The notes under the pieces were generated by a model. It did not search any database. It was given only the letters and a program-made list of their open reading frames with translations, and was not told where the DNA came from. Below, piece after piece: positions 21,998 to 59,945 of a stretch of 64,000 nucleotides of DNA. Within the stretch, counting starts at the first letter, position 1. Each line of letters begins with the position of its first letter. Origin of the DNA: a virus (taxonomy: Duplodnaviria > Caudoviricetes); the IMG/VR virus record IMGVR_UViG_3300020187_001966; one strand, written 5' to 3'. A program made the translations under genes and the position numbers.

Positions 21998-22696
21998 GTG
22001 CTAGACTTAAAAGTTATTGAAGTCCAACACTATACAGATAAACTTTTTAGAATTAGAACAGAGCGACCTCGCAGTTATAGATTTACTGCGGGGGAGTTCG
22101 TTATGATTGGTTTAGAGGATGCTCCAAGTAGAGCGTATAGTATTACCAGTGGTCCATATGACGACTACATAGAATTTTACAGTATTAAAGTACAAGACGG
22201 ACCGCTTACTAGTAAACTACAACACATTGTAGTAGGCGATACTATTCTTGTAGGTGAGAAGCCAACAGGTACACTTATACTTGCTAACTTAGAACTAGGC
22301 GGACATCTAGTAATGATGGCAAGTGGTACTGGTATTGCTCCGTTTATTAGTTTACTACGTGAACCAGAAACATATGATCTATTTGAGAACATTACAGTAA
22401 CATGGACTACTAGGCTACATGCTGAACAGGACTGTTACCGAGACTTCTTGAATGAGATGCCCATTGAATACATCAGCACAGTTACACAAGAGCCTGCTGA
22501 ACTACAAGGACGTATTCAAGTGTTCATGGCAGACGGTACTGTAAAGATTGACAACCCCGCAGAACAGCGTATAATGTTATGTGGAAGTGTAGCATTTAAC
22601 AATGATTTAAAAGAACACTTTAACAGCCTCGGATTTAACGAAGGCAACAAACGTACACAAGGAACGTTTGTACAAGAAAGGGCATTTGTCGGCTAA
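21998..22696 (+). CDS. fpr: Ferredoxin/flavodoxin-NADP+ reductase
   Basis: RFTAGEFVMIGL, RAYSITS, GPLTSKLQ, GTGIAPF, QGRI, MLCGS, ERAF. Confidence 0.9.
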   Translation: MLDLKVIEVQHYTDKLFRIRTERPRSYRFTAGEFVMIGLEDAPSRAYSITSGPYDDYIEFYSIKVQDGPLTSKLQHIVVGDTILVGEKPTGTLILANLELGGHLVMMASGTGIAPFISLLREPETYDLFENITVTWTTRLHAEQDCYRDFLNEMPIEYISTVTQEPAELQGRIQVFMADGTVKIDNPAEQRIMLCGSVAFNNDLKEHFNSLGFNEGNKRTQGTFVQERAFVG

Positions 22697-25380
22697 TGTA
22701 TGTAGACGCTTACTTCGATCAAAACAAAGATATTATCCACGTTACTGAACGTGATGAAAAAGGGCGGCGGGTATTCCGTGAGTATCCTGCTAGCTATGGC
22801 TTTTATTACAAGGATCAGCGTGGAAAGTACGACAGTATCTTTGGCGATAAACTATCACGTTATGCTACAACTAATGGCAGAGCGTTTAAAAAAGAAAAGA
22901 AGATGTATGGCGGACAAAAACTTTTTGAAAGTGATGTTAACCGCACGTTTAAGTGTTTAGCAGACAACTACTTGGGTAAAGATACTCCTAACTTAAACTT
23001 AGCCTTTTTTGATATTGAGGTTGACTTTGATAAAGACGTAGGATTTGCTCCGCCTGAAGATCCGTTTAACGCTATTACAGCAATCGCAGTTCATCTTAGT
23101 TGGCTTAAAACTACAGTATGTTTAGTGTGTAAACCAGACACACTTAGCCGTGAAGATGCAGCAGAGATATGTAGTCGCTTTCCAGACACTATGTTAATGG
23201 ATACAGAGGAAGAACTACTAAAAACTTTCCTTGAATTAATTGATGATGCGGATGTAATGAGTGGATGGAACAGCGAAGGCTTCGACATTCCATACACAGT
23301 AAACCGTATTTCTAGAACAATTGGTAAAGAGTATACTAAAAAGTTTTGCTTGTGGGATCAATATCCTAAACGCAGAGAGTTTGAGCGTTATGGAAAGTCA
23401 CAAGAGACGTTTGATACTATTGGACGTTTGCACTTAGACTATTTGCAACTGTATCAAAAATACACATATCACGAAATGCACAGCTACAGTTTGGATGCTA
23501 TTGCAGAGTATGAACTAGGCGAAAAGAAAGTTGAATACAAAGGCACACTTGACCAGTTATACAACAACGACTTCTATACGTTTATTGACTACAACAGACA
23601 AGACGTTGAGCTACTAGTTAAACTAGATGCCAAGCTACAGTTTATTGACTTAGCAAATGTTATTGCGCACGATAATACAGTTCTTATTCAGACAACAATG
23701 GGTGCTGTTGCGGTTACTGACCAAGCTATTATTAATGAAGCACATCATCGTGGACTAATTGTTCCTGACAAAGTACGTGATAAAGTACAAAAGCATTATC
23801 CACAATCAACACAAGCCGCAGGTGCGTATGTTGCTACTCCTGTACGTGGTAGGCACGAGTGGATTGGCAGTATGGACTTAAACAGTCTGTATCCTAGTAT
23901 CCTACGTAGCCTTAACTTGAGTACAGAAACTATTGTAGGGCAGGTTAGACACACATTAACTGTGCCACTACTACAGGAATATAAATGGGAAGCCGCAAGA
24001 GCGTGGGAGGGCAAGTTTGCTTGTCCAGAGTATGAGCTTGTAATGGCAAAGGATACTGAAACGCAACTGTGGATTGACTTTGAAAACGGCGAAGAGCTAA
24101 TGGCAACTGGTGCTGAAATATATAGCATTGTCTTTGAAAGCGATCAGCCTTGGGTTATTAGTAGTAATGCTACTATTATTAGACAAGACAAAAAAGGTAT
24201 TATTCCTGGATTGCTAGAGCGTTGGTATGCTGAACGTAAAGTTATGCAGAAAGAAGCTAGAGCTGTACAAGGTAAAGATGATGCCAAGTTTGGATACTGG
24301 GACAAGCGACAACTAGTTAAAAAGATTAACTTGAACAGTTTGTATGGTGCGTTACTTAATCAAGGATCACGTTTTAATGATCCACGCATGGGACAATCAA
24401 CAACATTAACAGGACGTACTATTGCTAGACATATGGGTGCTAGTGTTAATGAACTGTTTACTGGAGAATACAATCACGTAGGCGATACAATTGTGTATGG
24501 CGACACGGATAGTATCTACTTTAGTGCGTACCCTATCTTTAAAGACAAGATTGAAAGCGGAGAGTTTGAGTGGAATAAAGACAAGGTTACTGAACTTTAT
24601 GACACTGTATGCGATCAAGCAAACACAACGTTTCCTGGATATATGGCACAAGCACATAATGTACTTGACCAAAAGCAAGGTGAGATTATTGCCGCCGCTC
24701 GTGAAATGGTTGCCTTGTCTGGTATCTTTATTAAAAAGAAGCGTTATGCTATCCTAGTATATGATAACGAAGGCTATAGAGAAGACAAAGACGACAAGCC
24801 AGGTAAGATTAAAGCAATGGGCTTGGACTTAAAGCGTAGTGACACACCAGCATTTATGCAAGACTTTCTCAGTGAACTACTGCTTAAAACGCTAACAGGT
24901 ACAACTGATGATGATTTGATTGCTCGCATTATTGAGTTCCGTCAAGAGTTTAGACAAAAAGATCCGTGGGAGATTGGCACACCAAAGCGTGTTAACAAGC
25001 TAACACATTATACAGGGTTAGAATGGGATAAGAAAGGCGTGTACACTGGTAAAGCAAACATGCCTGGACACGTAAGAGCCGCAATCAACTACAATAGACT
25101 CAAGGGTATTAACAACGATAAATACAGTCCAGACATTGTTGATGGTATGAAAACTATTGTCTGTAAACTGAAACCGAATCCAATGGGATTCACTAGCATA
25201 GGATATCCTACAGATTCAATAATCCCTCCAGACTGGTTCAAAGAACTACCGTTTGATGTAGATCTTATGGAGGAAACAATCATTACTAAAAAGATTGATA
25301 ACTTACTTGGTGTACTACCAATTGACTTATCAAAAGCAGAGGACAAGACTACATTTGAGAGTCTGTTTGATTTTGGATGA
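22696..25380 (+). CDS. Family B DNA polymerase (T4 gp43-like)
   Basis: Exo motifs DIE, GWNSEGFDIPY, YNRQD; Pol motifs DLNSLYPS, KINLNSLYG, YGDTDS. Confidence 0.96.
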   Translation: MYVDAYFDQNKDIIHVTERDEKGRRVFREYPASYGFYYKDQRGKYDSIFGDKLSRYATTNGRAFKKEKKMYGGQKLFESDVNRTFKCLADNYLGKDTPNLNLAFFDIEVDFDKDVGFAPPEDPFNAITAIAVHLSWLKTTVCLVCKPDTLSREDAAEICSRFPDTMLMDTEEELLKTFLELIDDADVMSGWNSEGFDIPYTVNRISRTIGKEYTKKFCLWDQYPKRREFERYGKSQETFDTIGRLHLDYLQLYQKYTYHEMHSYSLDAIAEYELGEKKVEYKGTLDQLYNNDFYTFIDYNRQDVELLVKLDAKLQFIDLANVIAHDNTVLIQTTMGAVAVTDQAIINEAHHRGLIVPDKVRDKVQKHYPQSTQAAGAYVATPVRGRHEWIGSMDLNSLYPSILRSLNLSTETIVGQVRHTLTVPLLQEYKWEAARAWEGKFACPEYELVMAKDTETQLWIDFENGEELMATGAEIYSIVFESDQPWVISSNATIIRQDKKGIIPGLLERWYAERKVMQKEARAVQGKDDAKFGYWDKRQLVKKINLNSLYGALLNQGSRFNDPRMGQSTTLTGRTIARHMGASVNELFTGEYNHVGDTIVYGDTDSIYFSAYPIFKDKIESGEFEWNKDKVTELYDTVCDQANTTFPGYMAQAHNVLDQKQGEIIAAAREMVALSGIFIKKKRYAILVYDNEGYREDKDDKPGKIKAMGLDLKRSDTPAFMQDFLSELLLKTLTGTTDDDLIARIIEFRQEFRQKDPWEIGTPKRVNKLTHYTGLEWDKKGVYTGKANMPGHVRAAINYNRLKGINNDKYSPDIVDGMKTIVCKLKPNPMGFTSIGYPTDSIIPPDWFKELPFDVDLMEETIITKKIDNLLGVLPIDLSKAEDKTTFESLFDFG

Positions 25381-25619
25381 AAACAAGTTTAGATTTACAT
25401 GGAAAACATATACATGAAGCGTGGAAAAGTGTTGACAGATTCATAGGTGAGTGTTATTATAGTAATATTAAACGTTGTGAAATCATATGTGGCCAAGGCT
25501 TAATTCGTAATGAAATAGAAACTTGGTTAAATCTAAATATACATGTGCGAGAATATAGATTTAATGTCCGCACACAAGGCAGTTATAACGTAATACTAAA
25601 GAAAAGGAAAACAGTATGA
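25377..25619 (+). CDS. Stand-alone Smr (MutS2 C-terminal) domain protein
   Basis: SLDLHG...EA...F...IICGQG...G...V.L pattern. Confidence 0.75.
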   Translation: MKTSLDLHGKHIHEAWKSVDRFIGECYYSNIKRCEIICGQGLIRNEIETWLNLNIHVREYRFNVRTQGSYNVILKKRKTV

Positions 25620-26335
25620 GAGACTATCTTCTCGACATCGTAAAGCATACCCGTAATGTGGGTAACATTGACGCAGTAAAGGTTACTAACGGAAGTGTTA
25701 TTGAAGCTAAAGATGACGACAACAAAGTAATTGTAAAGGCAACTTACAAAACACCACGCAGCGAATTGGCTGGGGTAATTGGATTGCCAAACTTGGATAA
25801 ACTAAACGTTATCCTTAACATTTCTGAATATACTGAGAACGCAAATATCAGTGTTGAAATGCGTGAACGTAATGGTGAAGAAGTACCATTTACTATGAAG
25901 TTTGTAAACGCAGGTGGTGATTTTAAAAATGACTTCCGCTTTATGAGCAAAGAACTTATTACACAGCGTATTCCAGAAGTACGTTTTAAAGGTGCTAATT
26001 GGGATGTAGAAGTTGCTCCACATAGTGCTAGTGTAGCACGATTTAAGATGCAAGCACAAGCAAACAGTGAAGAGAATGTCTTCATTGCGAAAACAGATGG
26101 TGATTCACTAAAGTTTTATTTTGGTGATGACAGTGGACACACTGGTAACTTTACATTTGAAGCTAGTGTATCTGGTGAGCTTAAACAAAGCTGGAAATAT
26201 CCAGTTGCTGAAGTACAAAGTGTACTAAATCTTAATGGTGATATTACTATGCGATTTAGTGATGCTGGTGCGTTAAAGATTGATGTAGACAACGGCATGG
26301 CTGTGTACGAATACATCTTCCCGGCGCAAAGCTAA
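25616..26335 (+). CDS. Sliding clamp (gp45-like)
   Basis: About 240 aa, beta-rich, ends AVYEYIFPAQ; position after the polymerase. Confidence 0.75.
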   Translation: MRDYLLDIVKHTRNVGNIDAVKVTNGSVIEAKDDDNKVIVKATYKTPRSELAGVIGLPNLDKLNVILNISEYTENANISVEMRERNGEEVPFTMKFVNAGGDFKNDFRFMSKELITQRIPEVRFKGANWDVEVAPHSASVARFKMQAQANSEENVFIAKTDGDSLKFYFGDDSGHTGNFTFEASVSGELKQSWKYPVAEVQSVLNLNGDITMRFSDAGALKIDVDNGMAVYEYIFPAQS

Positions 26336-26781
26336 TGCGAGTTGGGTTTACGTGTAGTGTATTTGATTTGCTTCATGCTGGTCATATTGCTATGTTACGT
26401 GAAGCTAAAGAGCATTGTGAATATCTAATAGTTGGGTTACAAACTGACCCAACTATTGATAGACCGGACGAAAAGAATCGTCCAGTACAAAGTTTAGTTG
26501 AAAGACATTTACAACTAAGCGCAGTCAAGTATGTAGATGAAATTATCACATATCAGACTGAACAAGATTTGATTGATATTCTAAATATGTATAATATAAA
26601 TGTACGCATGTTAGGTGATGAATATCGAGAAAAGGATTTCACTGGCAAGGAAACTTGTCGCAAACGAGGTATTGAACTTCACTTCAACAGAAGAGACCAT
26701 AGGTTTAGTACAAGTGATTTAAGGGAAAGGGTTGAAAATGCCCCCAAACATCGAACAACGGTTAAAAAGTTTAGAAAGTAA
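26335..26781 (+). CDS. Cytidylyltransferase (TagD/glycerol-3-phosphate CT-like)
   Basis: FDLLHAGHI HxGH motif; LIVGLQTDP; FSTSDLR. Confidence 0.85.
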   Translation: MRVGFTCSVFDLLHAGHIAMLREAKEHCEYLIVGLQTDPTIDRPDEKNRPVQSLVERHLQLSAVKYVDEIITYQTEQDLIDILNMYNINVRMLGDEYREKDFTGKETCRKRGIELHFNRRDHRFSTSDLRERVENAPKHRTTVKKFRK

Positions 26782-26926
26782 GCATAAAGCTCTTGACAAA
26801 CAGATAGAACAGTTGTATAAACATACTAGTGCTGAACTTAGTATTAAAAAACTTAAGAAAGAAAAACTGCTCCTAAAACAGGAGATAGTAAAACTAACTA
26901 ACCAATTAGGAGAACATAATGGTTAA
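26738..26926 (+). CDS. DUF465/YdcH-like coiled-coil protein
   Basis: RLKSLESKHKALDKQI...LKKEKLLLKQEI. Confidence 0.7.
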   Translation: MPPNIEQRLKSLESKHKALDKQIEQLYKHTSAELSIKKLKKEKLLLKQEIVKLTNQLGEHNG

Positions 26927-27095
26927 GAAGATCCGTGTAATTGAAGACTCAACAGTAGCACCTGATGAAATATCTGACGCTGCGTTCCGAACACAAGTAA
27001 TGGAACTTGCGAAAGCTGTAGATTGGAAACTTTGGGAGTTGTTGCAAACTATTCAACGCCTTGAGAAGAAAATCGACGTTTCAGATAATGACTAA
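26919..27095 (+). CDS. Hypothetical protein, 58 aa (not in ORF track)
   Basis: SD AGGAGA; MVKKIRVIEDS...KAVDWKLWELLQ; overlaps both neighbours. Confidence 0.65.
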   Translation: MVKKIRVIEDSTVAPDEISDAAFRTQVMELAKAVDWKLWELLQTIQRLEKKIDVSDND

Positions 27096-27528
27096 CCGTG
27101 AAGGTTATTATGATTATATGCTTAGGCGTATGAGAGAAGAGGATACTAAGATGAAGAAGTCAAGCACAAATATTTGGGTAACATTCCGCAAGGAAGGTTT
27201 ACACAAGTACCCAGCAGCACTAGATGACCCTAAGTTGGCAACTGGTGATGAACAAGATGTAAGTTTCCTAGGATACATACATCGACATATTTTCCACTTT
27301 AAGGTAGAACTTGAAGTATTCCATGACGATCGAGACGTTGAATTTATCCAATTCAAGAGATGGTTGGAAAGCCTCTACGCAGACGGAACTCTGCAACTCG
27401 ATTTTAAATCCTGTGAGATGATTTGTGATGATCTTGCAGATACAATTAACACAAAATATCCCAACCGCAAAATGACAATCACTATTAGTGAGGATGGGGA
27501 AAATGGAGCAACGTGTAGCTATGCATAG
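27088..27528 (+). CDS. dpdL: QueD-paralogue T-fold enzyme of DpdL type (predicted CDG decarboxylase)
   Basis: LGYIHRHIF = LxxxHRHxF signature instead of the QueD CxxxHGH; SCEMI; EDGENG. Confidence 0.7.
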   Translation: MTNREGYYDYMLRRMREEDTKMKKSSTNIWVTFRKEGLHKYPAALDDPKLATGDEQDVSFLGYIHRHIFHFKVELEVFHDDRDVEFIQFKRWLESLYADGTLQLDFKSCEMICDDLADTINTKYPNRKMTITISEDGENGATCSYA

Positions 27529-27841
27529 TTTAGGTACTAATATCCGTGAACTTCGCCAAGGGCGAGTAAGCGTTAACGACATCAAATGGGATCTTATTAA
27601 GATTATCGAACCATATGATGGTATTCTTGCAACCAATGACGGAAGTGAACGAACTGTTCGCCGTCTATTCACTACATACCTAAGTGATCTTAGATACGTG
27701 GGTCTAATTAATGACTTTAACATCTTTAGTAATATCCGTGATAACGCTATTACATATGATGTAAGCGTAAAAATGTCACAAGATCGCAGTGATAAGAAAC
27801 TAAAGATTCATGTAGGTGTGTATCAGAAACGAGCGGCATAG
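27521..27841 (+). CDS. Hypothetical protein
   Basis: ORF filling the dpdL-dpdA gap; start uncertain. Confidence 0.6.
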   Translation: MHSLGTNIRELRQGRVSVNDIKWDLIKIIEPYDGILATNDGSERTVRRLFTTYLSDLRYVGLINDFNIFSNIRDNAITYDVSVKMSQDRSDKKLKIHVGVYQKRAA

Positions 27842-27842
27842 T

Positions 27843-29357
27843 ATGACAGCAACTCGTGTAAACTTAACAGAACGTAACAAAGACTACGCAGTATTTTTGC
27901 CTAGTATTAGTACGTTCTATAATAACTTTATCGCAAAGCAACGTGCTTCTGGCAATCATATTTTGCCAGAACGTATGCCAGCAGGTTTTGAAACTGGCAT
28001 GGAAGGCATGAACTTTCTTAATGAGAAGGATGCTTACTATAGTTATAAGTGGGGGTTATACTCCGCAGGTCATGCTCAACTTAATCTAGATAAAGCTAAT
28101 GAATCAGACGCAATGGTACAAGGCCGTGATCGTGACAAAACGTTTATGCTTTGTGACAGTGGCGGCTTTCAGATTATTAAAGGTGTTATCCAGTGTGATT
28201 GGGATAACTTTAAAACTGATGACAGTTTACGTCAGAAGATCTTAAACTGGTTGGAACACACAGGTGATTACAGTATGATCCTGGATATTCCAACACTAGC
28301 GGCGGATCCTACATTTACAGAACGAACAGGTATTTCATCATTCAACGAATGTTTGGACTACACTGACTTTAATGTAAACTGGTTTAAAAAGAACCGCAAA
28401 TACCAAACAAAGTATCTTAATGTTATGCAAGGGCGCAACTGGGCTGAAGCAGAACACTGGTATGAGAAAATGAAACATCATGATCTCGAAGGCTTTGCGT
28501 TTGGTGGTAGTGCTAAGAACGACATCAACATTGTACTACGTACACTTATTAAGATGCGTGATGATCAGCAACTAGAGCGTGGCAAACGTGATGTGCTACA
28601 CTACTTGGGCATTGGTAGACTAGAATGGGCAGCGGCTTATACAGCAATCCAACGTAGTTTACGTGAGCATGTTAACGAAGATATTAATGTTATGTTTGAC
28701 TGTGCGAGTCCTTTCTTGGCAACAGCAAATGGTACAATGTATACACAGCACGTTCATAAGTCAGATCGCTTTGGTTATGTTATGGATAAAGCAATGGACA
28801 GTAAAGCACTAAGTGGAAGTAAACAAGCATTTCCGTTTGGTAGTCCAATTGGCGAACGTCTTAACTTGGGTGACATTTGTCACTACTCGCCTGGTATGCT
28901 TAATAAAGTAGGCAAAGAAGGCAAAACAAGTTGGGATAGTTTTAGTTATATGCTACTAATGTCACACAATGTATACAGTCATATTGAAAGTGTACAACGT
29001 GCTAATGCGTTAACTGACATGGTAAACGCAACAGTAAGTACAGACTACAGAAAATGGCGTAAACTTAAACCTAACAGTAAAGATGAAGTGTTTAGTCCAT
29101 ATGTTCCACGTAACATTGTGTACATGACACAGTTTATTGATCAACTGTTCCGCAGTGAGAAACCTATGACAATGCTAGACGAAGCGGCAGGTATGTTAGC
29201 TAACTTTAGTGGACAAAAACTACAAACATCAAGTGCTGGTAGTTTTAGTAACTTGTTTGAAGTTGAAGGTGCTGTTTCAGAAGAATCCAATGAGATGTCA
29301 GCTGAACAAGAAGCTGACGCAATTGACTTTTTAGAATCAATGGAGAGTACTGTATGA
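27843..29357 (+). CDS. dpdA: DNA-guanine transglycosylase, TGT/DpdA family
   Basis: DSGGFQ motif, MILDIP, LNVMQG, GFAFGG, LHYLG, MFDCASPF; neighbours folE and queE. Confidence 0.85.
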   Translation: MTATRVNLTERNKDYAVFLPSISTFYNNFIAKQRASGNHILPERMPAGFETGMEGMNFLNEKDAYYSYKWGLYSAGHAQLNLDKANESDAMVQGRDRDKTFMLCDSGGFQIIKGVIQCDWDNFKTDDSLRQKILNWLEHTGDYSMILDIPTLAADPTFTERTGISSFNECLDYTDFNVNWFKKNRKYQTKYLNVMQGRNWAEAEHWYEKMKHHDLEGFAFGGSAKNDINIVLRTLIKMRDDQQLERGKRDVLHYLGIGRLEWAAAYTAIQRSLREHVNEDINVMFDCASPFLATANGTMYTQHVHKSDRFGYVMDKAMDSKALSGSKQAFPFGSPIGERLNLGDICHYSPGMLNKVGKEGKTSWDSFSYMLLMSHNVYSHIESVQRANALTDMVNATVSTDYRKWRKLKPNSKDEVFSPYVPRNIVYMTQFIDQLFRSEKPMTMLDEAAGMLANFSGQKLQTSSAGSFSNLFEVEGAVSEESNEMSAEQEADAIDFLESMESTV

Positions 29358-30109
29358 AAATTGTAGTTGTATCTGGTGGATTTGATCCATTACATAGTGG
29401 ACATATTGCGTACTTTAAGTCAGCTAGAAAACTTGGAGACAAACTTGTAGTTGCTGTGAATTCAGATGATTGGCTTACCCGTAAAAAGGGTAGGCCATTT
29501 ATGCCTTTTCATGAACGTTGTAATATTATTGAAGAGCTAGGGTGTGTTGATCAAGTTATTGGATTTAATGACGAAGACGACACAGCATGTAACGCAATAT
29601 TTCAAATGTTATCTACTAAAACAAGAAGTGATACTGTAATCTTTGCCAATGGTGGAGATCGCACTTCAGATAATATTCCAGAAATGATTTATGACGAAGT
29701 ACAATTTGAATTTGGAGTTGGTGGAGAAGACAAAAAGAATAGTAGTAGTTGGATACTTAAAGAGTGGAGTCAGCCTACAACACAACGTGCTTGGGGTAGT
29801 TACACAGTGTTACATAATGGTCCAGGTTGGGCAGTTAAAGAGCTAGCATTTGGTACTGAAACTCCACTAAGTGATCAACGACACTTTATTCGTAGTGAAC
29901 ACTGGCATGTAGTTGAAGGCGATATTCGTATGGATTTAGAGTTTGACAATGGCGACAAATCAAGTATACTATATACATCAGGACAAAGTATCGATATTCC
30001 TGTACACACTTGGCACAAAGCAACAAACGTCGGCACCACAACAGCAAAAGTAATTGAAGTGTGGATGGGCGATGAACTTAGTGAAGATGACATTGAAAGA
30101 AGAGATTAA
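29354..30109 (+). CDS. Cytidylyltransferase fused to mannose-6-phosphate-isomerase-type cupin
   Basis: SGGFDPLHSGH, FANGGDR, KNSSSWIL; RAWGSY...SDQRH..RSEHW...IPVHTWH. Confidence 0.85.
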   Translation: MKIVVVSGGFDPLHSGHIAYFKSARKLGDKLVVAVNSDDWLTRKKGRPFMPFHERCNIIEELGCVDQVIGFNDEDDTACNAIFQMLSTKTRSDTVIFANGGDRTSDNIPEMIYDEVQFEFGVGGEDKKNSSSWILKEWSQPTTQRAWGSYTVLHNGPGWAVKELAFGTETPLSDQRHFIRSEHWHVVEGDIRMDLEFDNGDKSSILYTSGQSIDIPVHTWHKATNVGTTTAKVIEVWMGDELSEDDIERRD

Positions 30110-31170
30110 TGAAAACAATTTATATTATACCGATAGAACCGATTGACCAACGTTATTCTAAGCAATGGTATGATAACATTCCACTTATACTACAAAAAGA
30201 GATAGCTGAACGTAATTTAGATTATCATGTAGTAACAATTGATGGCGAGGACTTTAAACCTGATGTGAGAACAGAAGGTGCTTTCCTTGACTTTGGTGCT
30301 ACTAATGTATATAAGTCAACACAGACTACAGCGGTAAGTAAACTGTTTAGTAACGGTAAAGTTAAGGCAGGCGATAAGTTTCTGATAACTGATGCTTGGA
30401 ACTTTATCATTACACCTATCAAATACATGAGTGACTTACTGGACATTCCAGTAGAGATACATAGTATTTGGCATGCTGGAGCATATGATCCAAGTGACAT
30501 ACTTGGGTATAAGATGCAACCAGACTGGCCCAATCATGTTGAGAAGAGCTGGTATCATAGTAGTGATTATAATTACTATGCTACAAACTTTCACAAGGAC
30601 ATGTTTTTACGTAACTTAAATATTCCACAAGGTAATTATAATAAAGCTATACGCAGTGGGCAACCACACGAGCTTATTGTTGATAACTTAACACAATATC
30701 AAACTACACCTAAAACAAATACAGTTATGTGGCCACATCGCTATAATGATGACAAGCAACCAGAAATTGCTGAAGACTTGTCTAACGACTTTAGAATGGT
30801 CATTACACAAAAAATGAACCTTGACAAAGCTGAATATTATGCTAAGATGGGAGGGTGTAAGGCAATTTTTAGTTGTGCGTTACATGAAAACCTAGGCATT
30901 AGTGTAATGGAAGCAGTACTAACAGGTGCTATTCCAATCGTGCCGGATCGCTGTAGTTACAGCGAAATGTATCTGCCAGAGTTTAAGTATCCAAGTGAAT
31001 GGACTAAAGACTATGTAGCATACGTGGAAAATAGACCACAGCTAACAGCCTTTATTCAAGAGAAACTAGACAACTTTGATCAGTATACAAACAAACTAGA
31101 AGAACAACGTAACATTCTTATTAAAGATTATCTAAATAGTAGTGTTATGATAGACAACATACTACAATAA
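30109..31170 (+). CDS. GT-B glycosyltransferase (GT4-like)
   Basis: WPHR...KQPE; HENLGISVMEAVLTGAIPIVPDR..YSEMY. Confidence 0.8.
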   Translation: MKTIYIIPIEPIDQRYSKQWYDNIPLILQKEIAERNLDYHVVTIDGEDFKPDVRTEGAFLDFGATNVYKSTQTTAVSKLFSNGKVKAGDKFLITDAWNFIITPIKYMSDLLDIPVEIHSIWHAGAYDPSDILGYKMQPDWPNHVEKSWYHSSDYNYYATNFHKDMFLRNLNIPQGNYNKAIRSGQPHELIVDNLTQYQTTPKTNTVMWPHRYNDDKQPEIAEDLSNDFRMVITQKMNLDKAEYYAKMGGCKAIFSCALHENLGISVMEAVLTGAIPIVPDRCSYSEMYLPEFKYPSEWTKDYVAYVENRPQLTAFIQEKLDNFDQYTNKLEEQRNILIKDYLNSSVMIDNILQ

Positions 31171-31189
31171 ACGAAAAGGAACATAGTAT

Positions 31190-31882
31190 ATGAACAAGAC
31201 TTCCGATTTAGTAATTAACAGACTAAAAAAAGACGACAAACGTTATTGGGCAGGCGATAACATTAGTGACTACATCAAAGACGGTGAAAAGGATCTATTG
31301 ATTGACGAAGCTGCTGTAGCGTTTGAAAGTGTATTAGATACACTTGTAATTGATCGTCATAATGATCCCAATTCAAAAGGTACAGCAAAGCGTTTAGCTA
31401 AAATGTATTATAATGAAATAATGGCGGGTCGTTACGAACCTATGCCACCAGCAACAGCCTTTCCAAACGATTCAGCGGATCGATATGAAGGAATGTTGGT
31501 AGTACGTAGTGAGCTTAAAAGTATGTGTTCACACCATCATCAGCCAGTGGCAGGTGTAGCGTACATAGGTATTATTGCTGCAGACACACTTATTGGTTTA
31601 AGCAAGTACACACGTATTGCTCAATGGTGTGCTAGACGTGGAACACTACAAGAAGAACTAGCTACTGATATTGCTAGGGAAATCATGTCAGCAACTGGTA
31701 GTACAGACGTTGGTGTCTATATCCAAGCAACACATGGTTGTTGTGAGAATAGAGGAATAGGCGCACACAGTAGTTTAACACAAACAACTGTACTTAAAGG
31801 TAGCTTCCATAATGACCAAGGAACTAAAAAAGAGTTCATGGACAATATTAAACTACAGCAATCATTTGCTCAAGGCAAATAA
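31190..31882 (+). CDS. folE: GTP cyclohydrolase I
   Basis: SMCSHHHQP, IGLSKYTR, LQEEL, HGCCENRG. Confidence 0.93.
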   Translation: MNKTSDLVINRLKKDDKRYWAGDNISDYIKDGEKDLLIDEAAVAFESVLDTLVIDRHNDPNSKGTAKRLAKMYYNEIMAGRYEPMPPATAFPNDSADRYEGMLVVRSELKSMCSHHHQPVAGVAYIGIIAADTLIGLSKYTRIAQWCARRGTLQEELATDIAREIMSATGSTDVGVYIQATHGCCENRGIGAHSSLTQTTVLKGSFHNDQGTKKEFMDNIKLQQSFAQGK

Positions 31883-32175
31883 TGAAAACTCCAAAATATA
31901 AAAACTTTGGGTCTGAATTGAGTATCCCTGTCAGTGGTTTATCTGACAGGGAGAATCACAAATCAGGATCTGGGGGTGCGCTAAATGCTGGTTATACACC
32001 AATTGATGCCCTCGCAGAATTATGTAACAAATTAGGTCACTATGGTCTAAAATATAAAACAGATTTTTACTGGGAAGACTTCCAGTATGGTTCGCAAGGT
32101 GGACAAACAATTAGGTTGACATTCCGTTCAAAGGATGTTATGTTAACGGCAAAGATAGGATTAATAAATGATTAA
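31882..32175 (+). CDS. Hypothetical protein
   Basis: TAATG coupled to folE. Confidence 0.65.
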   Translation: MKTPKYKNFGSELSIPVSGLSDRENHKSGSGGALNAGYTPIDALAELCNKLGHYGLKYKTDFYWEDFQYGSQGGQTIRLTFRSKDVMLTAKIGLIND

Positions 32176-32674
32176 AAAACATTATTACAGTTGGACTGAC
32201 ATTGAACGCATGTGTGTTAGTATTGTTAATCAAATGTACAAGGACAACTGGCGTCCTGATTACATTGTAGGACTTACTCGTGGAGGGAATGTACCTGCTA
32301 CTATTATTAGTAACATGACAGGCATTCGTTGCGAAGCACTTAAAGTAAGTTTACGTGATGATGACAGTGAAAGCGAAAGTAACTGTTGGATGGCAGAAGA
32401 TGCTTACGATGGAAAAAACATTCTTATTGTAGACGACATTAACGATACTGGTGCTACATTTAATTGGATTATAGATGATTGGCAAGCAGGATGTTTTCCA
32501 AATGATGTCGCTGGTTGGAAATCAGCGTGGGGTCAAAATGTAAGATTTGCTACACTAACAGACAACTTAGCAAGTGAATTTAAAGGGCAGTGTGCGTACA
32601 CTTGTCATGAAATTAATAAAGCAGAAGAGGATGTGTGGTTAGTTTATCCTTGGGAAAATGTAGGAGAATACTAA
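32168..32674 (+). CDS. Type I phosphoribosyltransferase (Gpt/Hpt-like)
   Basis: IVGLTRGG; ILIVDDINDTGAT PRPP motif; WLVYPWE. Confidence 0.88.
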   Translation: MIKKHYYSWTDIERMCVSIVNQMYKDNWRPDYIVGLTRGGNVPATIISNMTGIRCEALKVSLRDDDSESESNCWMAEDAYDGKNILIVDDINDTGATFNWIIDDWQAGCFPNDVAGWKSAWGQNVRFATLTDNLASEFKGQCAYTCHEINKAEEDVWLVYPWENVGEY

Positions 32675-35980: not shown

Positions 35981-36187
35981 TTGACAAATAGTGAACCATA
36001 TCGTAAAATAGATAATAATAATTGGGTTATTACTGTACAAGAACAGGGCGAAACAAAAGAGCTGTTTGTAGAATTTCCTCCTGATGCGCTTAATCAAGTA
36101 GGATGGGATGTAGGAGATACTCTTGTATGGCAAGAACTTGACCATGGAGCATGGAGTTTAACAAAGAAGGATGAAGATGAAACTTAG
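35981..36187 (+). CDS. AbrB/MazE/SpoVT-like DNA-binding protein
   Basis: LFVEFPPDALNQVGWDVGDTLVW; TTG start behind SD AAGGA (start uncertain). Confidence 0.6.
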   Translation: MTNSEPYRKIDNNNWVITVQEQGETKELFVEFPPDALNQVGWDVGDTLVWQELDHGAWSLTKKDEDET

Positions 36188-37070
36188 ATATAGTGAAGCG
36201 TTTTATAGCGTACAAGGCGAAGGTAAGTTTGTAGGAGTACCTAGTGTGTTCTTGCGTACTTTTGGTTGTAACTTTCGTTGTATGAACTTTGGCTTAAAGA
36301 ACGAGCCAATGCGTGATGTAAAACAAAAAGCAGGCATTATTCATAATGCTGAAGTACAAGGATTACTTGACGCAGGTGTACATGAAACAACTAAAGAGTT
36401 TACAGACCTGCCTATTATCCACACAGGTTGCGATACATACGCAAGTATCTATCCAGAGTTTAAACACTTTAATCGACAAGCAACTGTAGATGAAGTAGTT
36501 GAACACTTACTTAGTCTATTACCCGAAGGCAAATGGACAATGGACAATGGTCAAGACGTACATTTGATTATGACAGGCGGCGAACCATTGTTAGCATGGC
36601 AACGCCTGTATGTAGAACTATTTGAGCATCCACGCATGAAAGATTTAAAAAATGTTACATTTGAAACAAACACTACACAACATCTACACGACGAGTTATT
36701 CGAATATCTCAACAATAGCGACAGAATTACAGTCACTTGGAGTTGTTCCCCAAAACTTAGTGTCAGTGGAGAACCTTGGGAAACTGCTATTAAACCTGAT
36801 GTTGCTAGTGAGTACCAGTGTGTTACTGATAGCGACCTTTATCTTAAGTTTGTTGTGGCTACTGCTGACGACTTTGACGAAGTTACGAGGGCTGTGGAGG
36901 CTTACAGAAGTGCCGGGGTGGAATGTCCAGTATATCTTATGCCAATGGGCGGTCGCAGTGAAGAATATTCCCTCAACGTTAAAGACGTGGCTGAAGCGTG
37001 TATGGAAAGAGGATGGAGATTCACACCCAGACTACACATATCACTCTTCGGAAATGCCTGGGGAACTTAA
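36171..37070 (+). CDS. queE: 7-carboxy-7-deazaguanine synthase (radical SAM)
   Basis: FYSVQGEG, FLRTFGCNFRC, GCDT, TGGEP, FETN, CSPK, PRLH. Confidence 0.9.
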   Translation: MKMKLRYSEAFYSVQGEGKFVGVPSVFLRTFGCNFRCMNFGLKNEPMRDVKQKAGIIHNAEVQGLLDAGVHETTKEFTDLPIIHTGCDTYASIYPEFKHFNRQATVDEVVEHLLSLLPEGKWTMDNGQDVHLIMTGGEPLLAWQRLYVELFEHPRMKDLKNVTFETNTTQHLHDELFEYLNNSDRITVTWSCSPKLSVSGEPWETAIKPDVASEYQCVTDSDLYLKFVVATADDFDEVTRAVEAYRSAGVECPVYLMPMGGRSEEYSLNVKDVAEACMERGWRFTPRLHISLFGNAWGT

Positions 37071-38258: not shown

Positions 38259-39350
38259 ATGAACAACTATATTTTTACAAGCGAAAGTGTAAGTGACGGT
38301 CATCCAGATAAAGTAGCAGATCAGATATCTGATGCCCTGGTGGATGCTGGACTAGCTAATGGCGACGAGACAACTCGTGTTGCTGTTGAAACACTTGTAA
38401 CCACTAACCATGTAACGGTAGCGGGTGAAGTAAAGAACTTTAATGTAAACAACGTAAAAGAGATTATACGTGACAAAGTTAAAGAAATCGGATACGAACA
38501 AGACGGGTTCCATTGGGACAACTTAAACATCTACAATGAGATACACGCACAAAGTGGAGACATTGCTCTAGGCACAGACGACTTTGGAGCAGGAGATCAA
38601 GGACTAATGTTTGGCTATGCTTGTAATCATACAGACAGTATGATGCCAGCACCTATTCATTACAGTCACGAGATCTTAAAGAACTTGAAAAGCAAGCGTG
38701 GTAATATACTAGGACCAGATGCTAAGAGTCAAGTAAGTGTAGAGTACTATGGTGCTAGACGTGACGGTGTAATCAAACGCATTGATCAAGTCGTGATAAG
38801 TACTCAGCACACAGAAGGCAATGTACAAGAGGCTCGACACCTTTGTAAACTTGCCGCAATGGAAGAATTAGGAGATTTAGTCGATGAAAGAACTACATGG
38901 CATCTTAACCCTACTGGAAATTTCGTTATTGGCGGTCCTGACGGTGATGCTGGTGTTACTGGGCGAAAAATTATTGTTGATACTTATGGGGGTTTTGCTC
39001 CTCATGGTGGCGGTGCGTTTAGTGGCAAAGACCCAACAAAAGTCGACAGAAGTGCAGCCTACATGGCCAGATGGCTTGCGAAGAATGTAGTAGCAGACAG
39101 CATGGCAGACTGGTGTAATATCCAGTTATCTTATGCTATTGGTGTAAAAGAACCTACAAGCATTTATGTTGACAGTAATGGACACAATGCTAGTATTGCT
39201 AACTTTATTGAGCGTGAAATTGACTTAACCCCAAAAGGAATCATTGACAGATTTGATTTATTCAACTATACTAACTATAGCGAAAACTGCACATACGGAC
39301 ACTTTGGAAACAAAGATGTACCATGGGAAAGGATTGGATGGAATGCTTAA
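38259..39350 (+). CDS. metK: S-adenosylmethionine synthetase
   Basis: FTSESVSDGHPDK, GAGDQG, GPDAKSQ, GGPDGDAGVTGRK, GGAFSGKD. Confidence 0.96.
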   Translation: MNNYIFTSESVSDGHPDKVADQISDALVDAGLANGDETTRVAVETLVTTNHVTVAGEVKNFNVNNVKEIIRDKVKEIGYEQDGFHWDNLNIYNEIHAQSGDIALGTDDFGAGDQGLMFGYACNHTDSMMPAPIHYSHEILKNLKSKRGNILGPDAKSQVSVEYYGARRDGVIKRIDQVVISTQHTEGNVQEARHLCKLAAMEELGDLVDERTTWHLNPTGNFVIGGPDGDAGVTGRKIIVDTYGGFAPHGGGAFSGKDPTKVDRSAAYMARWLAKNVVADSMADWCNIQLSYAIGVKEPTSIYVDSNGHNASIANFIEREIDLTPKGIIDRFDLFNYTNYSENCTYGHFGNKDVPWERIGWNA

Positions 39351-52216: not shown

Positions 52217-53668
52217 ATGGACTATTACATTGTTGTATTATTATTAGGTGTGTTTTACGGATTTTTCGTAGGGCTCGTTCCTGTGGCTGGTGCTACAACT
52301 GGACTGATTGCAGTTTACAGTTTTGTAGGCTACTTTGAAGATCCTTACATGCTAGTTGTGTTTACTACAGCCATTGTAGTTACTAGCAGTATAGGAGATA
52401 CATTTTGCGGTGTTGTTATGAATATACCAGGAGCAGGCGGTGCCGCCGCTACTATGGTAGATGGATTTCCAATGTCAAGAAGAGGTGAAGCCGCTAGAGC
52501 ACTTAGTGCTGCAATTAGTACAAGTTGGATAAACGGATTAATATGGGGCTTGGCTGTGTTCTTGTTTCTGCCTTACTATACTAAAATTGTACTGTATTTT
52601 GGTACAGCAGAAATGTTTTCGTTCTTGATATTTGCTATGACTTGTGTTATATTTGTTAGTAGTAAGTATTGGTTCCGTGGCGCTGTAGCATTAGTTGCTG
52701 GCGTTGCTGTTGGGCATATTGGTATGGATCCAAATACTGCTAGTGTACGTTGGACTATGGATTGGGAATATCTTGGAGCAGGTGTACAAATAATACCATT
52801 AATGGCAGGAGTGTTAGCATTTCCAGAACTAGTAAGTGCATATCGTATGCGAGCAGAAAAGATAAAATTAACTAATGGTGTTATTGTTGAACAACTAATA
52901 CAAGGTGTTCGAGACACTTGGCGTTATAAGTGGGATGGATTACGTGGAGGTCTAATAGGAGGCTTTATCGGACTAGTACCAGGCATAGGCGGAGCAATTG
53001 CTGATTGGTTTGCATATAGCCAAACTGTTGCACTTGGAAAACGTGATGGAGAAAATGTTGGACAAGGTCATGTTAGAGGAGTAATAGGTTGTGAAGGTGC
53101 AAACAATGCACAAAAGGCAACCAGTTATGTTCCTACAGTGTTGTTTGGTATCCCTGGCGCACCATTTGAAGTTATAGTAATGGGACTGTTGATGTATGTT
53201 GGACTTGAGCTAGGTACACCAAGTGTACTAGAAGATCAAAGATTTTTTGATGTACTACTCAGTAGTTACTTGTGGAGTTTGTTACTCATACTGCCTATTA
53301 GTTATGGGTTTATCAAGTATGCAGTGTATATAACAAACCTTCCGTTTAAGTATTACTTCTGGCCTATACTAGCAAGTTTAGTTTGGGCTAGTACACAGTA
53401 CACAGGCATGATAGATGATTATGCTATGTTAGCTATTTGTTGTGTTGTAGGCATGGCAATGAAGTATCTGAAGTTCAGTAGAGTGAGCTTCTTGATTGGT
53501 TTTATTCTTAGTGCTAGATTAGAATCAAGTTGGGTACAGTTTGATACATTTGGTTATGGGTGGCAAGATTTGCTACTAAAACCACTACCAGCTGTATTCA
53601 TAACCCTAGCAATTGCAGCCGCAATTTGGGGAATATTTTTTAATAAAGCACGTATTGATTTTGTATAG
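52217..53668 (+). CDS. tctA: Tripartite tricarboxylate transporter, large membrane subunit
   Basis: Polytopic; IPGAGGAAATMVDGFPMSRRG, GLVPGIGG, EGANNA, LFGIPG. Confidence 0.88.
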   Translation: MDYYIVVLLLGVFYGFFVGLVPVAGATTGLIAVYSFVGYFEDPYMLVVFTTAIVVTSSIGDTFCGVVMNIPGAGGAAATMVDGFPMSRRGEAARALSAAISTSWINGLIWGLAVFLFLPYYTKIVLYFGTAEMFSFLIFAMTCVIFVSSKYWFRGAVALVAGVAVGHIGMDPNTASVRWTMDWEYLGAGVQIIPLMAGVLAFPELVSAYRMRAEKIKLTNGVIVEQLIQGVRDTWRYKWDGLRGGLIGGFIGLVPGIGGAIADWFAYSQTVALGKRDGENVGQGHVRGVIGCEGANNAQKATSYVPTVLFGIPGAPFEVIVMGLLMYVGLELGTPSVLEDQRFFDVLLSSYLWSLLLILPISYGFIKYAVYITNLPFKYYFWPILASLVWASTQYTGMIDDYAMLAICCVVGMAMKYLKFSRVSFLIGFILSARLESSWVQFDTFGYGWQDLLLKPLPAVFITLAIAAAIWGIFFNKARIDFV

Positions 53669-55684: not shown

Positions 55685-56364
55685 AGAACACCAGTATAAA
55701 TTCGTTGAACAGTGTCGTTTAGAACTCGATCAATAGATTTATTTTTTGCAAGATCTTGGAACTTTGTATCTCGTTTACAAAGTTCTTTTTCTTTGTGTAA
55801 TTGATTATCTAGTCCTAGTTTATGTAATAGTTCTACTAGACTATTTTGTTGTAAATCAAAATGTTGTTGAATAAATTTATTCTCTATAGCAATTTTTTCT
55901 CTCATACGCTTGTCATTCTCATACCAAGTATAGTGAGGATAAGTTATATTCCAACCTCCTACTTGATGCCACCAATCAAAACAAAAGTCATCTGGCATCC
56001 AAAATGCCAAGAACTTTGCTTCAGGAAACCATTCACGTAGTTGAGGTATATGATAACTAAACCAATGACTTTTAACGATCTTAATACCAGTATCCCAATC
56101 ATCGAAAGGTTCCTGAAATTGTGCTATTACATCGTCACGATTTAATTGATCCAGACGATCAAACTCTAAACCATAATCGTGTCCTGGTCCCCAATATGCA
56201 CCTCTGTGCCAACCTTTAGCGCCGTTAGTATAACTATCAGTGTTTACTTCATCTGACGTATTGATGTCTACTTGACTTTGTATACATCGAATTGCTCCGC
56301 TCCAACGACTGCCTGGTGTACCAGTTGCTATGATTAAATCTTTACCTTTATACATAATTGCCAC
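55681..56364 (-). CDS. Sulfotransferase-like P-loop-fold protein
   Basis: IIATGTPGSRWS; GAYWGPG; IVKSHWF; paralogue of 58091-58798. Confidence 0.55.
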   Translation of the reverse strand: MAIMYKGKDLIIATGTPGSRWSGAIRCIQSQVDINTSDEVNTDSYTNGAKGWHRGAYWGPGHDYGLEFDRLDQLNRDDVIAQFQEPFDDWDTGIKIVKSHWFSYHIPQLREWFPEAKFLAFWMPDDFCFDWWHQVGGWNITYPHYTWYENDKRMREKIAIENKFIQQHFDLQQNSLVELLHKLGLDNQLHKEKELCKRDTKFQDLAKNKSIDRVLNDTVQRIYTGVL

Positions 56365-57010
56365 CCAAACTAGAACTTAGCAAAACTGTATTGCCAGTAG
56401 TAATACCTACTTGTGTACCAAGAGCACTCATTGTTCTAGTAGTACTAAATGCCCATTCTCTTTCTGCACACCACCAACAATCTTCACACGGTGGGTAACT
56501 AGTTTCGCAACTTACTGTTAGATCCTGTAATGCTTTTAAGTTATATTTTTTATATATCATTGCTAGATGGCTTTTATTAACATCATAAAACGGACGATAG
56601 AAATGATTATGAATTACTCTAGACAGTAACACATCTCTATCTTTTTTTCTTTGTTCATGATACTTTAACTTTACATCTGGGTTACGGGTTTTTCCACTTA
56701 CCCAGCAACTTAAATTGTATTGCTCAGTTAAATTATTAGTAGCTTGATCTCTATATTCTTTGCGTAATTCTAAGTTTGGCGCTATTGTTACACAATGCTC
56801 TAGTATTTTTACTGATGTATAGCACTGAATCCACCTGCTTACTGCTAGCGCAGGCTCTATATTATATTTCTTATCATCACTAGCAACTGTAAGTAACACA
56901 ACGTCATGCTGTCTTTGTGACGCTATTAACCAAAACAATATTGCGCTGTCACTACCGCCACTTAGATATATGCCTATAGGCCCTGTGGGTAATTTTATTT
57001 CGTCTGCCAC
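56348..57010 (-). CDS. QueC-like PP-loop ATP pyrophosphatase
   Basis: YLSGGSDSA; RPFY..NK; TVSC...PCEDCWWCAER Zn motif. Confidence 0.75.
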   Translation of the reverse strand: MADEIKLPTGPIGIYLSGGSDSAILFWLIASQRQHDVVLLTVASDDKKYNIEPALAVSRWIQCYTSVKILEHCVTIAPNLELRKEYRDQATNNLTEQYNLSCWVSGKTRNPDVKLKYHEQRKKDRDVLLSRVIHNHFYRPFYDVNKSHLAMIYKKYNLKALQDLTVSCETSYPPCEDCWWCAEREWAFSTTRTMSALGTQVGITTGNTVLLSSSLGGNYV

Positions 57011-59211: not shown

Positions 59212-59945
59212 ACGATAAACTCTTTCATCTTTCGGTATTCTCTATAGCTAACATTAAGTACACGGCTGTTATTAGTCTGATTCCTCAATGCCATATTATT
59301 TTTTATTTGTGTTTCTATATGTTGATAAAAACTTCCACTGTTTAAATGCTCCCAAACATCTTGTACTGTAAAAAACAATCCCCAACGTTTACTTAATTGA
59401 TATAGCATTTTTCCATATTTAGTTTTGCTACCATTCATCCACTCAAGTTTAAGATAGGCAGGAAAATGCGCCGTTGTGTGCATATATCTATTTACTATAT
59501 CATCAGCATCTGCTACAATATTAATTACACGACTGTTGGGAAACTGTGTTAGTATTTCTTCTGGTAAACTATGCGTACAGTATAATAACCGATGTGTGTT
59601 TAGATATTGTTGACCTTGGGCTTTTTCAAACTGTGCTGGAAATAAGTCACGATAATATGTATCACAATCAACAAAATCTTTTACATAATCCCAGACTGGA
59701 GGCAATACTTCTCCGTTGGGCATAGTCCTATCAAAATGTTTGGGGGCTACTCGACGTTGAATTATCCAATCACACTTGTGCGATATGTTCCAAGGATTAA
59801 TACCGTTGTCTGAATTACTATACCAATACACTTCTGGTAAACTGCACAAGACACGCCCGATAGTGTGTCCTCTACTACCAGGTTCAAAACTTACAAAAAC
59901 AAAGTTTGGATTATTGTATACGTCCGAGATAATAGTAAACTCCAT
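59208..59945 (-). CDS. Sulfotransferase-like protein (divergent)
   Basis: VFVSFEPGSRGHTIGR; LYCTH. Confidence 0.45.
   Translation of the reverse strand: MEFTIISDVYNNPNFVFVSFEPGSRGHTIGRVLCSLPEVYWYSNSDNGINPWNISHKCDWIIQRRVAPKHFDRTMPNGEVLPPVWDYVKDFVDCDTYYRDLFPAQFEKAQGQQYLNTHRLLYCTHSLPEEILTQFPNSRVINIVADADDIVNRYMHTTAHFPAYLKLEWMNGSKTKYGKMLYQLSKRWGLFFTVQDVWEHLNSGSFYQHIETQIKNNMALRNQTNNSRVLNVSYREYRKMKEFIV

Follow-up and report, generated by a model that had tools for sequence, protein, structure and literature searches.

Gene content of the locus

We analyzed a 64,000-nucleotide stretch of DNA from a large marine phage (Duplodnaviria; Caudoviricetes; IMG/VR record IMGVR_UViG_3300020187_001966), referred to here as the window, in which 11 open reading frames (ORFs), all on the + strand, are packed between positions 26335 and 32674. 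This run very probably encodes a module that places 7-deazaguanine in DNA by means of DpdA, a guanine transglycosylase, and the glycosyltransferase (GT) encoded within it is likely to serve the same pathway. An earlier note on this DNA, made from the sequence alone, had read the run as CT (a nucleotidyltransferase), DUF465, an ORF, dpdL, an ORF, dpdA, a CT/cupin fusion, a GT-B glycosyltransferase, folE, an ORF and a phosphoribosyltransferase (PRTase) gene; this order is present as described, and every gene call was verified. Curated models back five of the 11 ORFs, namely both nucleotidyltransferases, DUF465, FolE and the type I PRTase. Neighboring genes overlap by four bases at 29357/29354, by one at 30109/30109 and again at 31882/31882, and by eight at 32175/32168, although some overlaps may be overstated, as ORF starts were taken at the most upstream position possible; the sole gap named among the junctions of the run is the 19 nt before folE. 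Near-identical DNA was not found among cultured phages. The genes of the run, together with the associated polymerase, clamp-like and QueE genes outside it, are as follows.

22696–25380, + strand: family B DNA polymerase (PolB), PF00136/PF03104, anchor of the module
25616–26335, + strand: orf239, probable sliding clamp (phrog_12062, a label without function; ESM-atlas neighbors; annotation in Phosso)
26335–26781, + strand: CT1, cytidylyltransferase-like HxGH nucleotidyltransferase, accessory (PF01467, 3e-13; phrog_7878)
26732–26926, + strand: DUF465 small protein (PF04325, 3e-9)
26919–27095, + strand: orf58, conserved small ORF (tblastn matches of 38–91% in related loci)
27061–27528, + strand: DpdL, QueD-like T-fold protein of 155 aa, proposed decarboxylase of 7-carboxy-7-deazaguanine (CDG), by signature and homology
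27488–27841, + strand: orf117, conserved (tblastn matches of 44–94% in nearer relatives; no family match)
27816–29357, + strand: DpdA-like guanine transglycosylase of 513 aa, from a divergent 500-aa subfamily (transglycosylase fold, catalytic Asp)
29354–30109, + strand: CT domain fused to a type II phosphomannose-isomerase-like cupin (PF01467, 2e-15, and PF01050, 2e-20)
30109–31170, + strand: GT4-like GT-B glycosyltransferase of 353 aa (AlphaFold 2 model, Foldseek and VIA)
31190–31882, + strand: GTP cyclohydrolase I, FolE (PF01227, 4e-38; NF006824, 7e-38)
31882–32175, + strand: orf97 (no family match; homologues in loci L006 and L041 only)
32168–32674, + strand: type I PRTase of the 6-oxopurine type (PF00156, 2e-13)
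36171–37070, + strand: QueE-like radical-SAM CDG synthase, outside the run (QueE NCBIfam models, 3e-12 to 5e-8; weak PF04055; syntenic)

For comparison, IMG/VR was sampled four ways (by DpdA, GT, DpdL and PRTase), giving about 300 uncultured phage loci in all. The order PolB, orf239, DpdA, (small genes), DpdL, GT, FolE, PRTase, QueE recurs among them down to 35–40% protein identity. Hundreds of related loci keep these genes in synteny, so the arrangement is not due to chance.

A probable deazaguanine module with a divergent DpdA

Sequence searches with Pfam and PHROG, and with phmmer or a profile against the PDB, identified neither the 513-aa nor the 353-aa protein, so that only structure prediction resolved the two. 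For the 513-aa protein there was no match in Pfam (E ≤ 0.01), in PHROG or among PDB sequences (phmmer and profile searches), and a hit to TIGR00449 (E 5e-4, 19 bits) fell below that model's cut-off of 47.6. Its AlphaFold 2 (AF2) model, with a pLDDT of 84, retrieved only tRNA-guanine transglycosylases (TGTs) as top Foldseek matches in the PDB (E ~1e-8, probability 1.00). Three aspartates, D114 (in DSGGFQ), D157 and D295 (in MFDC), are invariant in 29 members of the family and are retained in the homologues from the Pseudomonas jumbo phage PA5oct, the Acidovorax phage ACP17 and bacteria. Of the zinc site, CxCxxC...H, only C355, H384 and H389 are conserved in the phage clade, and these three residues are not kept in the bacterial and ACP17 homologues. 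The model thus points to an enzyme of the TGT/DpdA superfamily that belongs to a divergent subfamily and is predicted to exchange bases in DNA. By hhalign it is a distant homologue of the 424-aa DpdA of ACP17 (probability 88%) and barely similar to DpdA3 of the Cellulophaga phage phiST (17%). The family comprises at least 6,887 protein clusters, without a Pfam domain, and PA5oct, like a relative with a complete genome of 328 kb, has no TGT-like gene other than its member of this family. Virion DNA of PA5oct carries modified G in GA and GG contexts (PMC12191111).

The 155-aa product of dpdL has no Pfam match. Its sequence LGYIHRHIF is an exact instance of the published DpdL signature LxxxHRHxF, which takes the place of the QueD motif CxxxHGH (PMC10516641), and the HRH is kept across the family alignment. 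It shares 57% identity with DpdL of ACP17 (E 3e-38) and 32% with the founding DpdL of phiST (CGPG_00067; E 1e-7). A search with the QueD proteins of ACP17 and phiST (tblastn) found no QueD within the window; the genomes of four of five large related phage records encode one elsewhere. None of these five relatives has a convincing QueC, their only candidates being sub-threshold or marginal PP-loop/QueC matches. Since QueC is missing, the pathway would stop at CDG, as it does in DpdL-type systems. In the window DpdL is accompanied by FolE, QueE and DpdA, and occurs without QueC. The reading of this run as a 7-deazaguanine DNA-modification module is therefore supported by the DpdL signature and homology, the TGT fold of DpdA, FolE, QueE and the lack of QueC, and we hold it, DpdA included, with high confidence.

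Several observations made alongside concern these same genes. A weak QueC-like match in the window was rejected as QueC: it comes from a PP-loop protein encoded on the opposite strand, at a distance of 24 kb. This PP-loop ATPase, with its weakly QueC-like C-terminus, and an AMP-binding-enzyme fragment (56348–57010 and 59911–60597, both on the − strand) lie in an unannotated minus-strand block and may be part of another small-molecule pathway. Just 5' of DpdL in 46–63 of 80 related loci, and in ACP17, stands a family of 130–150 aa (L213, 7328–7774; L065, 7326–7724) that matches nothing in Pfam or PHROG and has no homologue in the window, where DUF465 and orf58 take its place. Relative to the window, loci L229–L308 are 72–90% identical in FolE, PRTase and QueE, about 56% in PolB, and 35–49% in DpdA and GT; either the genes for precursor supply are under much tighter constraint, or they are swapped as a cassette.

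The glycosyltransferase and its link to DpdL

The AF2 model of the 353-aa protein (pLDDT 87) resembles GT4-type enzymes of the GT-B fold, with Z scores of 23–24 to BshA, MshA, sucrose-phosphate synthase (SPS), OtsA and PimA. BshA is the best match (Z 23.9, root-mean-square deviation 3.6, 303 residues aligned), and the other four lie within two Z units of it. An EX7E motif is present as H-E-NLGISVM-E, in which E268 is invariant, as are the basic residues R211 and K216; these would serve in binding the diphosphate of a nucleoside diphosphate (NDP) donor. At the sequence level, Pfam Glycos_transf_1 matches the window GT with an E-value of 0.014 and nine of 13 family members in all (best 2.8e-6), every match lying below the gathering score, and PF12038 (QTMAN_N, the domain of the queuosine mannosyltransferase QTMAN/GTDC1) matches none of the 13 at E ≤ 1. 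Among the structural matches in BFVD, one protein labeled "DNA alpha-glucosyltransferase" ranks 42nd.

This GT is closely tied to DpdL. In 80 loci sampled by GT, DpdL is present in 75, FolE in 67 and a DpdA of either type in 68. Sampling by DpdL instead gives a GT in 69 of 80 loci (49 by tblastn, and 20 of a divergent clade by profile), most of the others being truncated, with a DpdA-type gene near DpdL in 72. Of the loci sampled by PRTase, all that extend 3.2 kb or more upstream have the GT. In the sampled loci the GT almost never occurs away from DpdL.

Cultured phages and bacteria give the linkage independence, because their gene contexts differ. The GT lies between DpdA and DpdL in PA5oct, and in ACP17 between DpdL and the 424-aa DpdA of a different type; in Phosso it adjoins DpdL, and DpdA is 170 kb distant. 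The genome of phiST has DpdL, and no homologue of the GT was found anywhere in it. Bacterial chromosomal contigs carry bare cassettes, either GT-DpdL-DpdA (Magnetospirillum and others) or GT-DpdA (Sulfitobacter, Shimia, Roseobacter, Pelagibacterium), whose flanks for the most part lack FolE and QueE. Genes near these cassettes (L344, 7977–11088; L348, 8001–10554) include HEPN_LA2681, nSTAND3, a CoiA-nuclease-like protein, a MASE1 two-component pair, QueD and, beside one cassette, a YhhQ-family (Vut_1) transporter. These cassettes look like a restriction-modification-like version of the module, or one set in defense islands. The proposal that the GT is a partner of the deazaguanine module thus finds support in its position beside DpdL in the GT-sampled loci, the three cultured phages and the bacterial cassettes, and we consider its membership in the pathway likely.

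Sugar-donor candidates and the phosphoribosyltransferase

Both CT domains are clear nucleotidyltransferases, scoring 50 and 58 bits with PF01467 (cut-off 21); the cupin scores 73 bits with PF01050 (cut-off 23.6). CT1 has the motifs HAGH and RFSTSDLR, and the CT-cupin has HSGH, RAWGSY and HWHVVEG...H. Neither protein reaches the cut-offs of the substrate-specific RfaE-II and TagD models. CT1 was found in 14–27 of 80 sampled loci, and it and the CT-cupin each occur in a minority. A cupin, CT-fused or alone, stands directly 5' of the GT in 29 of the 38 loci in which identity to the window GT reaches 50% or more, and in one of 202 others. The suggestion that the two nucleotidyltransferases are module members is weakened: a core role is not borne out, in view of their minority occurrence and their cyanophage homologues, while the cupin, with or without CT, tracks the GT clade of the window. 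On this pattern the cupin/CT is most likely a clade-specific supplier of the sugar donor for the GT, and by analogy with GMP-PMI enzymes the donor may be a mannose-type NDP-sugar.

The PRTase has a motif for binding phosphoribosyl pyrophosphate (PRPP), ILIVDDINDTGAT, and keeps VDDINDTG; it scores 50 bits with PF00156 (cut-off 26.3). Its best PDB matches are GpT-2, a P. horikoshii PRT, HGPRT and XGPRT, all of the 6-oxopurine type, and its best NCBIfam match is XPRT, with PRK09177 reaching 52 bits, under the equivalog cut-off of 138. We take the Asp of VDDINDTG to be equivalent to D137 of HGPRT and D92 of XGPRT, which act on purine N7. Among close relatives the PRTase always accompanies the module. 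PA5oct has a divergent homologue inside its cluster (by a Pfam-level search), phiST has one too, and that of BUCT-ZZ01 neighbors a queuosine gene; none was found in the complete DpdL-bearing genomes of ACP17, Phosso and RHph_I1_18. Besides the small PRTase, the large relatives L317 (G005, 309727–310044) and L318 (G002, 160634–160963) encode a second PF00156 protein, which at about 315 aa is as long as a PRPP synthetase.

There is precedent for a PRTase that takes a deazapurine: in tubercidin synthesis the purine-type PRTase TubE acts specifically on CDG, and decarboxylation comes after ribosylation (PMC6112128). The earlier note had offered two roles for the window PRTase, the making of a deazaguanine nucleotide and, as the alternative, salvage of the guanine released by DpdA. 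Because the enzyme is of the 6-oxopurine type and keeps the N7-acting Asp, the salvage reading is the one we favor, if by a modest measure; the nucleotide route is disfavored, although TubE is a real precedent for it.

A candidate link to replication

The disordered tail of DpdA (pLDDT <50) has the peptide SFSNLFEV (29238–29264), which resembles the C-terminal peptide of PolB, TFESLFDFG (25351–25377). The latter in turn resembles the clamp-binding tail of the T4 polymerase gp43, which ends in ASLDFLFG. An F-x-x-[LIM]-F pattern was found in the DpdA tail in 99 of 140 distinct PolB/DpdA pairs and in PA5oct, and was absent from the bacterial DpdA homologues examined; the PolB C-termini match it. 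As a sequence feature, this clamp-type peptide suggests that base insertion is coupled to replication.

A clamp candidate lies directly 5' of DpdA in most related loci. The ESM-atlas neighbors of orf239 are labeled PCNA-N or sliding clamp (0.97 and 0.95), its Phosso homologue is annotated as a clamp, and it is present in 61 of 80 GT-sampled and 70 of 80 DpdL-sampled loci. It is probably a very divergent sliding clamp, without sequence similarity to gp45 of T4. The PA5oct homologue of orf239 has been detected in virions.

Flanking genes

Upstream of the run lie PolB, an Smr protein and orf239; downstream, queE stands between two DNA-methyltransferase-like genes (weak PF01555; 35046–38246), and metK comes next:

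38259–39350, + strand: S-adenosylmethionine (SAM) synthetase, MetK (PF02773, PF00438 and PF02772)

MetK is likely a source of SAM for QueE and the flanking methyltransferases. Further genes in 32816–64000 include one with a strong match to the TctA tricarboxylate transporter (2e-83), probably at 52217–53668, as well as matches to a nitroreductase, an Asp/Arg-hydroxylase-type oxygenase and an APS kinase. Promoter-like sites in the window are no more frequent than in shuffled sequence.

Proposed pathway and alternatives

From the observed folds, motifs, synteny and co-occurrence we infer the chemical steps that follow, along with an acceptor atom, a sugar and a clamp tether. FolE would start from GTP and form the first intermediate, the next step would fall to a QueD whose gene lies in another part of the genome, QueE would then yield CDG, and DpdL would turn CDG into 7-deazaguanine. 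The 513-aa TGT-fold enzyme would swap guanine in DNA for 7-deazaguanine, probably riding the sliding clamp encoded just upstream and acting on newly made DNA. The GT4-type enzyme would add a sugar to the deazaguanine after, or just before, insertion. In the clade of the window the donor would come from the translationally coupled isomerase-cupin/nucleotidyltransferase, with CT1 as an optional helper. The PRTase would turn the guanine expelled by DpdA into GMP and so replenish the GTP used by FolE. HuiG, a GT4-type enzyme of the huimycin pathway, glycosylates a 7-deazapurine (PMC7439116), and dpdL and dpdA of ACP17 on their own gave no 2'-deoxy-7-deazaguanine (dDG) in E. coli (PMC10516641). Taken whole, as a replication-linked 7-deazaguanine module with a sugar step and guanine salvage, we regard this explanation as equally balanced between right and wrong; for the part of it that says the final DNA base carries a sugar, the balance is level or tips slightly toward no.

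A number of points weigh against the proposed pathway. The phages in which this base has been measured, phiST and the vibriophage VP1, carry unglycosylated dDG (PMC10516641; 10.1101/2025.10.29.685425), DpdL having been shown here for phiST only of the two. 7-Deazaguanine offers neither a hydroxyl nor a side chain as a handle, which makes any choice of acceptor (N2, C7 or another DpdL product) a guess, and decarboxylation of CDG by DpdL is a proposal in the founding paper as well (PMC10516641). The closest solved structures to the GT (BshA, MshA, SPS and OtsA) glycosylate small molecules, and the alpha- and beta-glucosyltransferases of T4 (AGT and BGT) are not among the 50 best Foldseek/VIA rows. 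Conservation of the module does not extend to the nucleotidyltransferases, and marine T4-like cyanophages, which do not figure among the DpdL matches, commonly have CT homologues. Evidence for the clamp identity of orf239 is weak, as neither hhalign against T4 gp45 nor a profile search against the PDB identified it as a gp45-type clamp. Finally, the co-occurrence counts come from related, non-independent loci, and show conservation rather than independent events.

Some of these points fit an alternative in which the phage, like phiST, has plain 7-deazaguanine in its DNA, and the GT has another target, for instance a pterin or deazapurine by-product that is free in the cell, a protein or the envelope. 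A side reaction or regulation would then account for its linkage to DpdL. The top structural neighbors of the GT are GT4/GT20 enzymes with small-molecule acceptors, a tetrahydrobiopterin glucosyltransferase (5zes) being among the matches, and FolE, a PTPS-like protein and a GT together are also the logic of pterin-glycoside synthesis. The lack of an obvious acceptor group on deazaguanine and the plain dDG of phiST and VP1 point the same way. The gene neighborhoods do not: the GT adjoins DpdL/DpdA in DpdA contexts of three kinds, and also in bacterial cassettes of two or three genes without FolE and QueE, which is hard to explain unless it shares the substrate of DpdL and DpdA, and it is missing exactly from phiST, the phage with proven plain dDG. 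We therefore think this alternative unlikely, though it deserves to be kept in view. The proximity of these genes would mean less if they were mere neighbors in an early replication region, with the GT, nucleotidyltransferases and PRTase being unrelated auxiliary metabolic genes. The cyanophage homologues of CT and the unremarkable frequency of promoter-like sites are in keeping with this, and it may hold for CT1 alone; for the run as a whole it is very improbable, given that GT and PRTase synteny is kept to 35–40% protein identity, across phage lineages and into bacteria.

A different use of the same enzymes would place modification before replication. A TubE-like PRTase would join CDG or 7-deazaguanine to PRPP, DpdL may decarboxylate the nucleotide, and kinases and ribonucleotide reductase would deliver 7-deaza-dGTP to the adjacent polymerase, leaving DpdA a secondary part in patching or proofreading. 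Besides TubE itself (PMC6112128), this route could draw on the PRTase homologues in the distant DpdL phages phiST, BUCT-ZZ01 and PA5oct, the complete base replacement in phiST and VP1, the failure of dpdL and dpdA alone in E. coli, and the 72–84% conservation of the PRTase against about 56% for PolB. The complete genomes of ACP17, Phosso and RHph_I1_18 have DpdL and lack the PRTase, however, and the frequent presence of a DpdA-type gene near DpdL, together with its clamp-type tail, fits action on DNA. Modification in PA5oct also seems to be motif-specific (GA/GG), as is typical of post-replicative exchange; the PRTase keeps an Asp that presumably deprotonates N7, an atom that a 7-deaza base does not have; and no dGTPase or MazG was found among the genes scanned. 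On this evidence the pre-replicative route is a poor candidate, and the pathway outlined above, with base exchange by DpdA and salvage by the PRTase, is the one we carry forward.

Implications

To our knowledge, eight 7-deazaguanine derivatives are known in viral DNA, none of them bearing a sugar, and all known glycosylated DNA bases are pyrimidine derivatives. If the proposed pathway is true, its product would be a purine analogue with a sugar attached, the first of its kind in a genome. We found no report of glycosylated deazaguanine in DNA in the literature searched, most subscription journals being outside that search. In a very large group of uncultured phages, sampled here at approximately 300 loci, the GT is a near-obligate partner of DpdL/DpdA; three cultured phage groups have it as well. 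This partnership may explain both the published lack of dDG from ACP17 dpdL and dpdA in E. coli and the sensing of PA5oct DNA by nucleases that target hypermodified DNA. The polymerase-like clamp peptide of DpdA suggests a way in which base exchange could be coupled to replication. As the divergent DpdA subfamily escapes Pfam, phages with deazaguanine-modified DNA are probably under-counted.

More tentatively, and with somewhat more doubt than confidence, we propose that glycosylated 7-deazaguanine is present in the DNA of this phage, PA5oct, ACP17 and thousands of uncultured relatives, that DpdL leaves C7 bare and electron-rich (or N2 free) for the GT4 enzyme, that a clamp-tethered DpdA of a hitherto unrecognized subfamily installs the base at the fork, and that in alphaproteobacteria the GT-DpdA pair does the modifying in islands of a restriction-modification-like kind. 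The GT is present in cultured phages (PA5oct, ACP17 and Phosso), and the question of the sugar is therefore directly answerable. A sugar-decorated deazaguanine is a plausible, well-founded and readily testable hypothesis.

Comparison with known systems

The nearest characterized system is the dDG system of phiST, which consists of FolE, QueD, QueE, DpdL and DpdA3 (Cui, Hutinet et al., 2023; PMC10516641). The window shares with it FolE, QueE, a DpdL with the LxxxHRHxF signature, the lack of QueC, a transglycosylase of the TGT superfamily, a PRTase homologue and a site adjacent to the polymerase (PMC10516641). They differ in that phiST, which lacks a GT, encodes MazG and a kinase-like AAA_18 protein, whereas the window adds the GT4 enzyme, the cupin/nucleotidyltransferase and the clamp-type tail. 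BLAST found no homologue of phiST MazG, AAA_18 or DpdA3 in the window. ACP17 and PA5oct are closer in content, sharing the GT family (31% and 39%, respectively), DpdL (57% and 54%) and QueE; PA5oct further shares the DpdA subfamily (36%), the tail peptide and a PRTase-like gene within the cluster. Both lack the cupin/nucleotidyltransferase, and the 424-aa DpdA of ACP17 is a distant homologue.

In its general logic the proposed sugar step recalls the glucosylation of hydroxymethylcytosine in T4, where likewise a GT-B enzyme is encoded in the replication region; here it would put the sugar of an NDP-sugar on a non-canonical base. That base would be a purine analogue, not hydroxymethylcytosine, and the fold of the GT is nearer to GT4 small-molecule enzymes than to AGT and BGT. 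The window has ordinary ThyA and DHFR and no hydroxymethylase. By their descriptions, the GTs of huimycin (HuiG) and dapiramicin synthesis are likewise GT4-type and act on a 7-deazaguanine-type base derived through FolE, QueD and QueE (PMC7439116; 10.64898/2026.04.15.718813), although those pathways belong to the secondary metabolism of actinomycetes, use free preQ0 derivatives and have no DpdA. TubE and ToyH, also compared by description, are likewise purine-type PRTases of small size, and their genes accompany those for FolE and QueE in pathways that stop at CDG; unlike the tubercidin and toyocamycin pathways, the module has no UbiD decarboxylase, GMP reductase or Nudix gene. The bacterial Dpd system (DpdA/B/C and DpdD–K) similarly uses a TGT-family enzyme to insert 7-deazaguanine in DNA. 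In the window there is no DpdB or DpdC, the DpdA is of another subfamily, and its partner is a glycosyltransferase.

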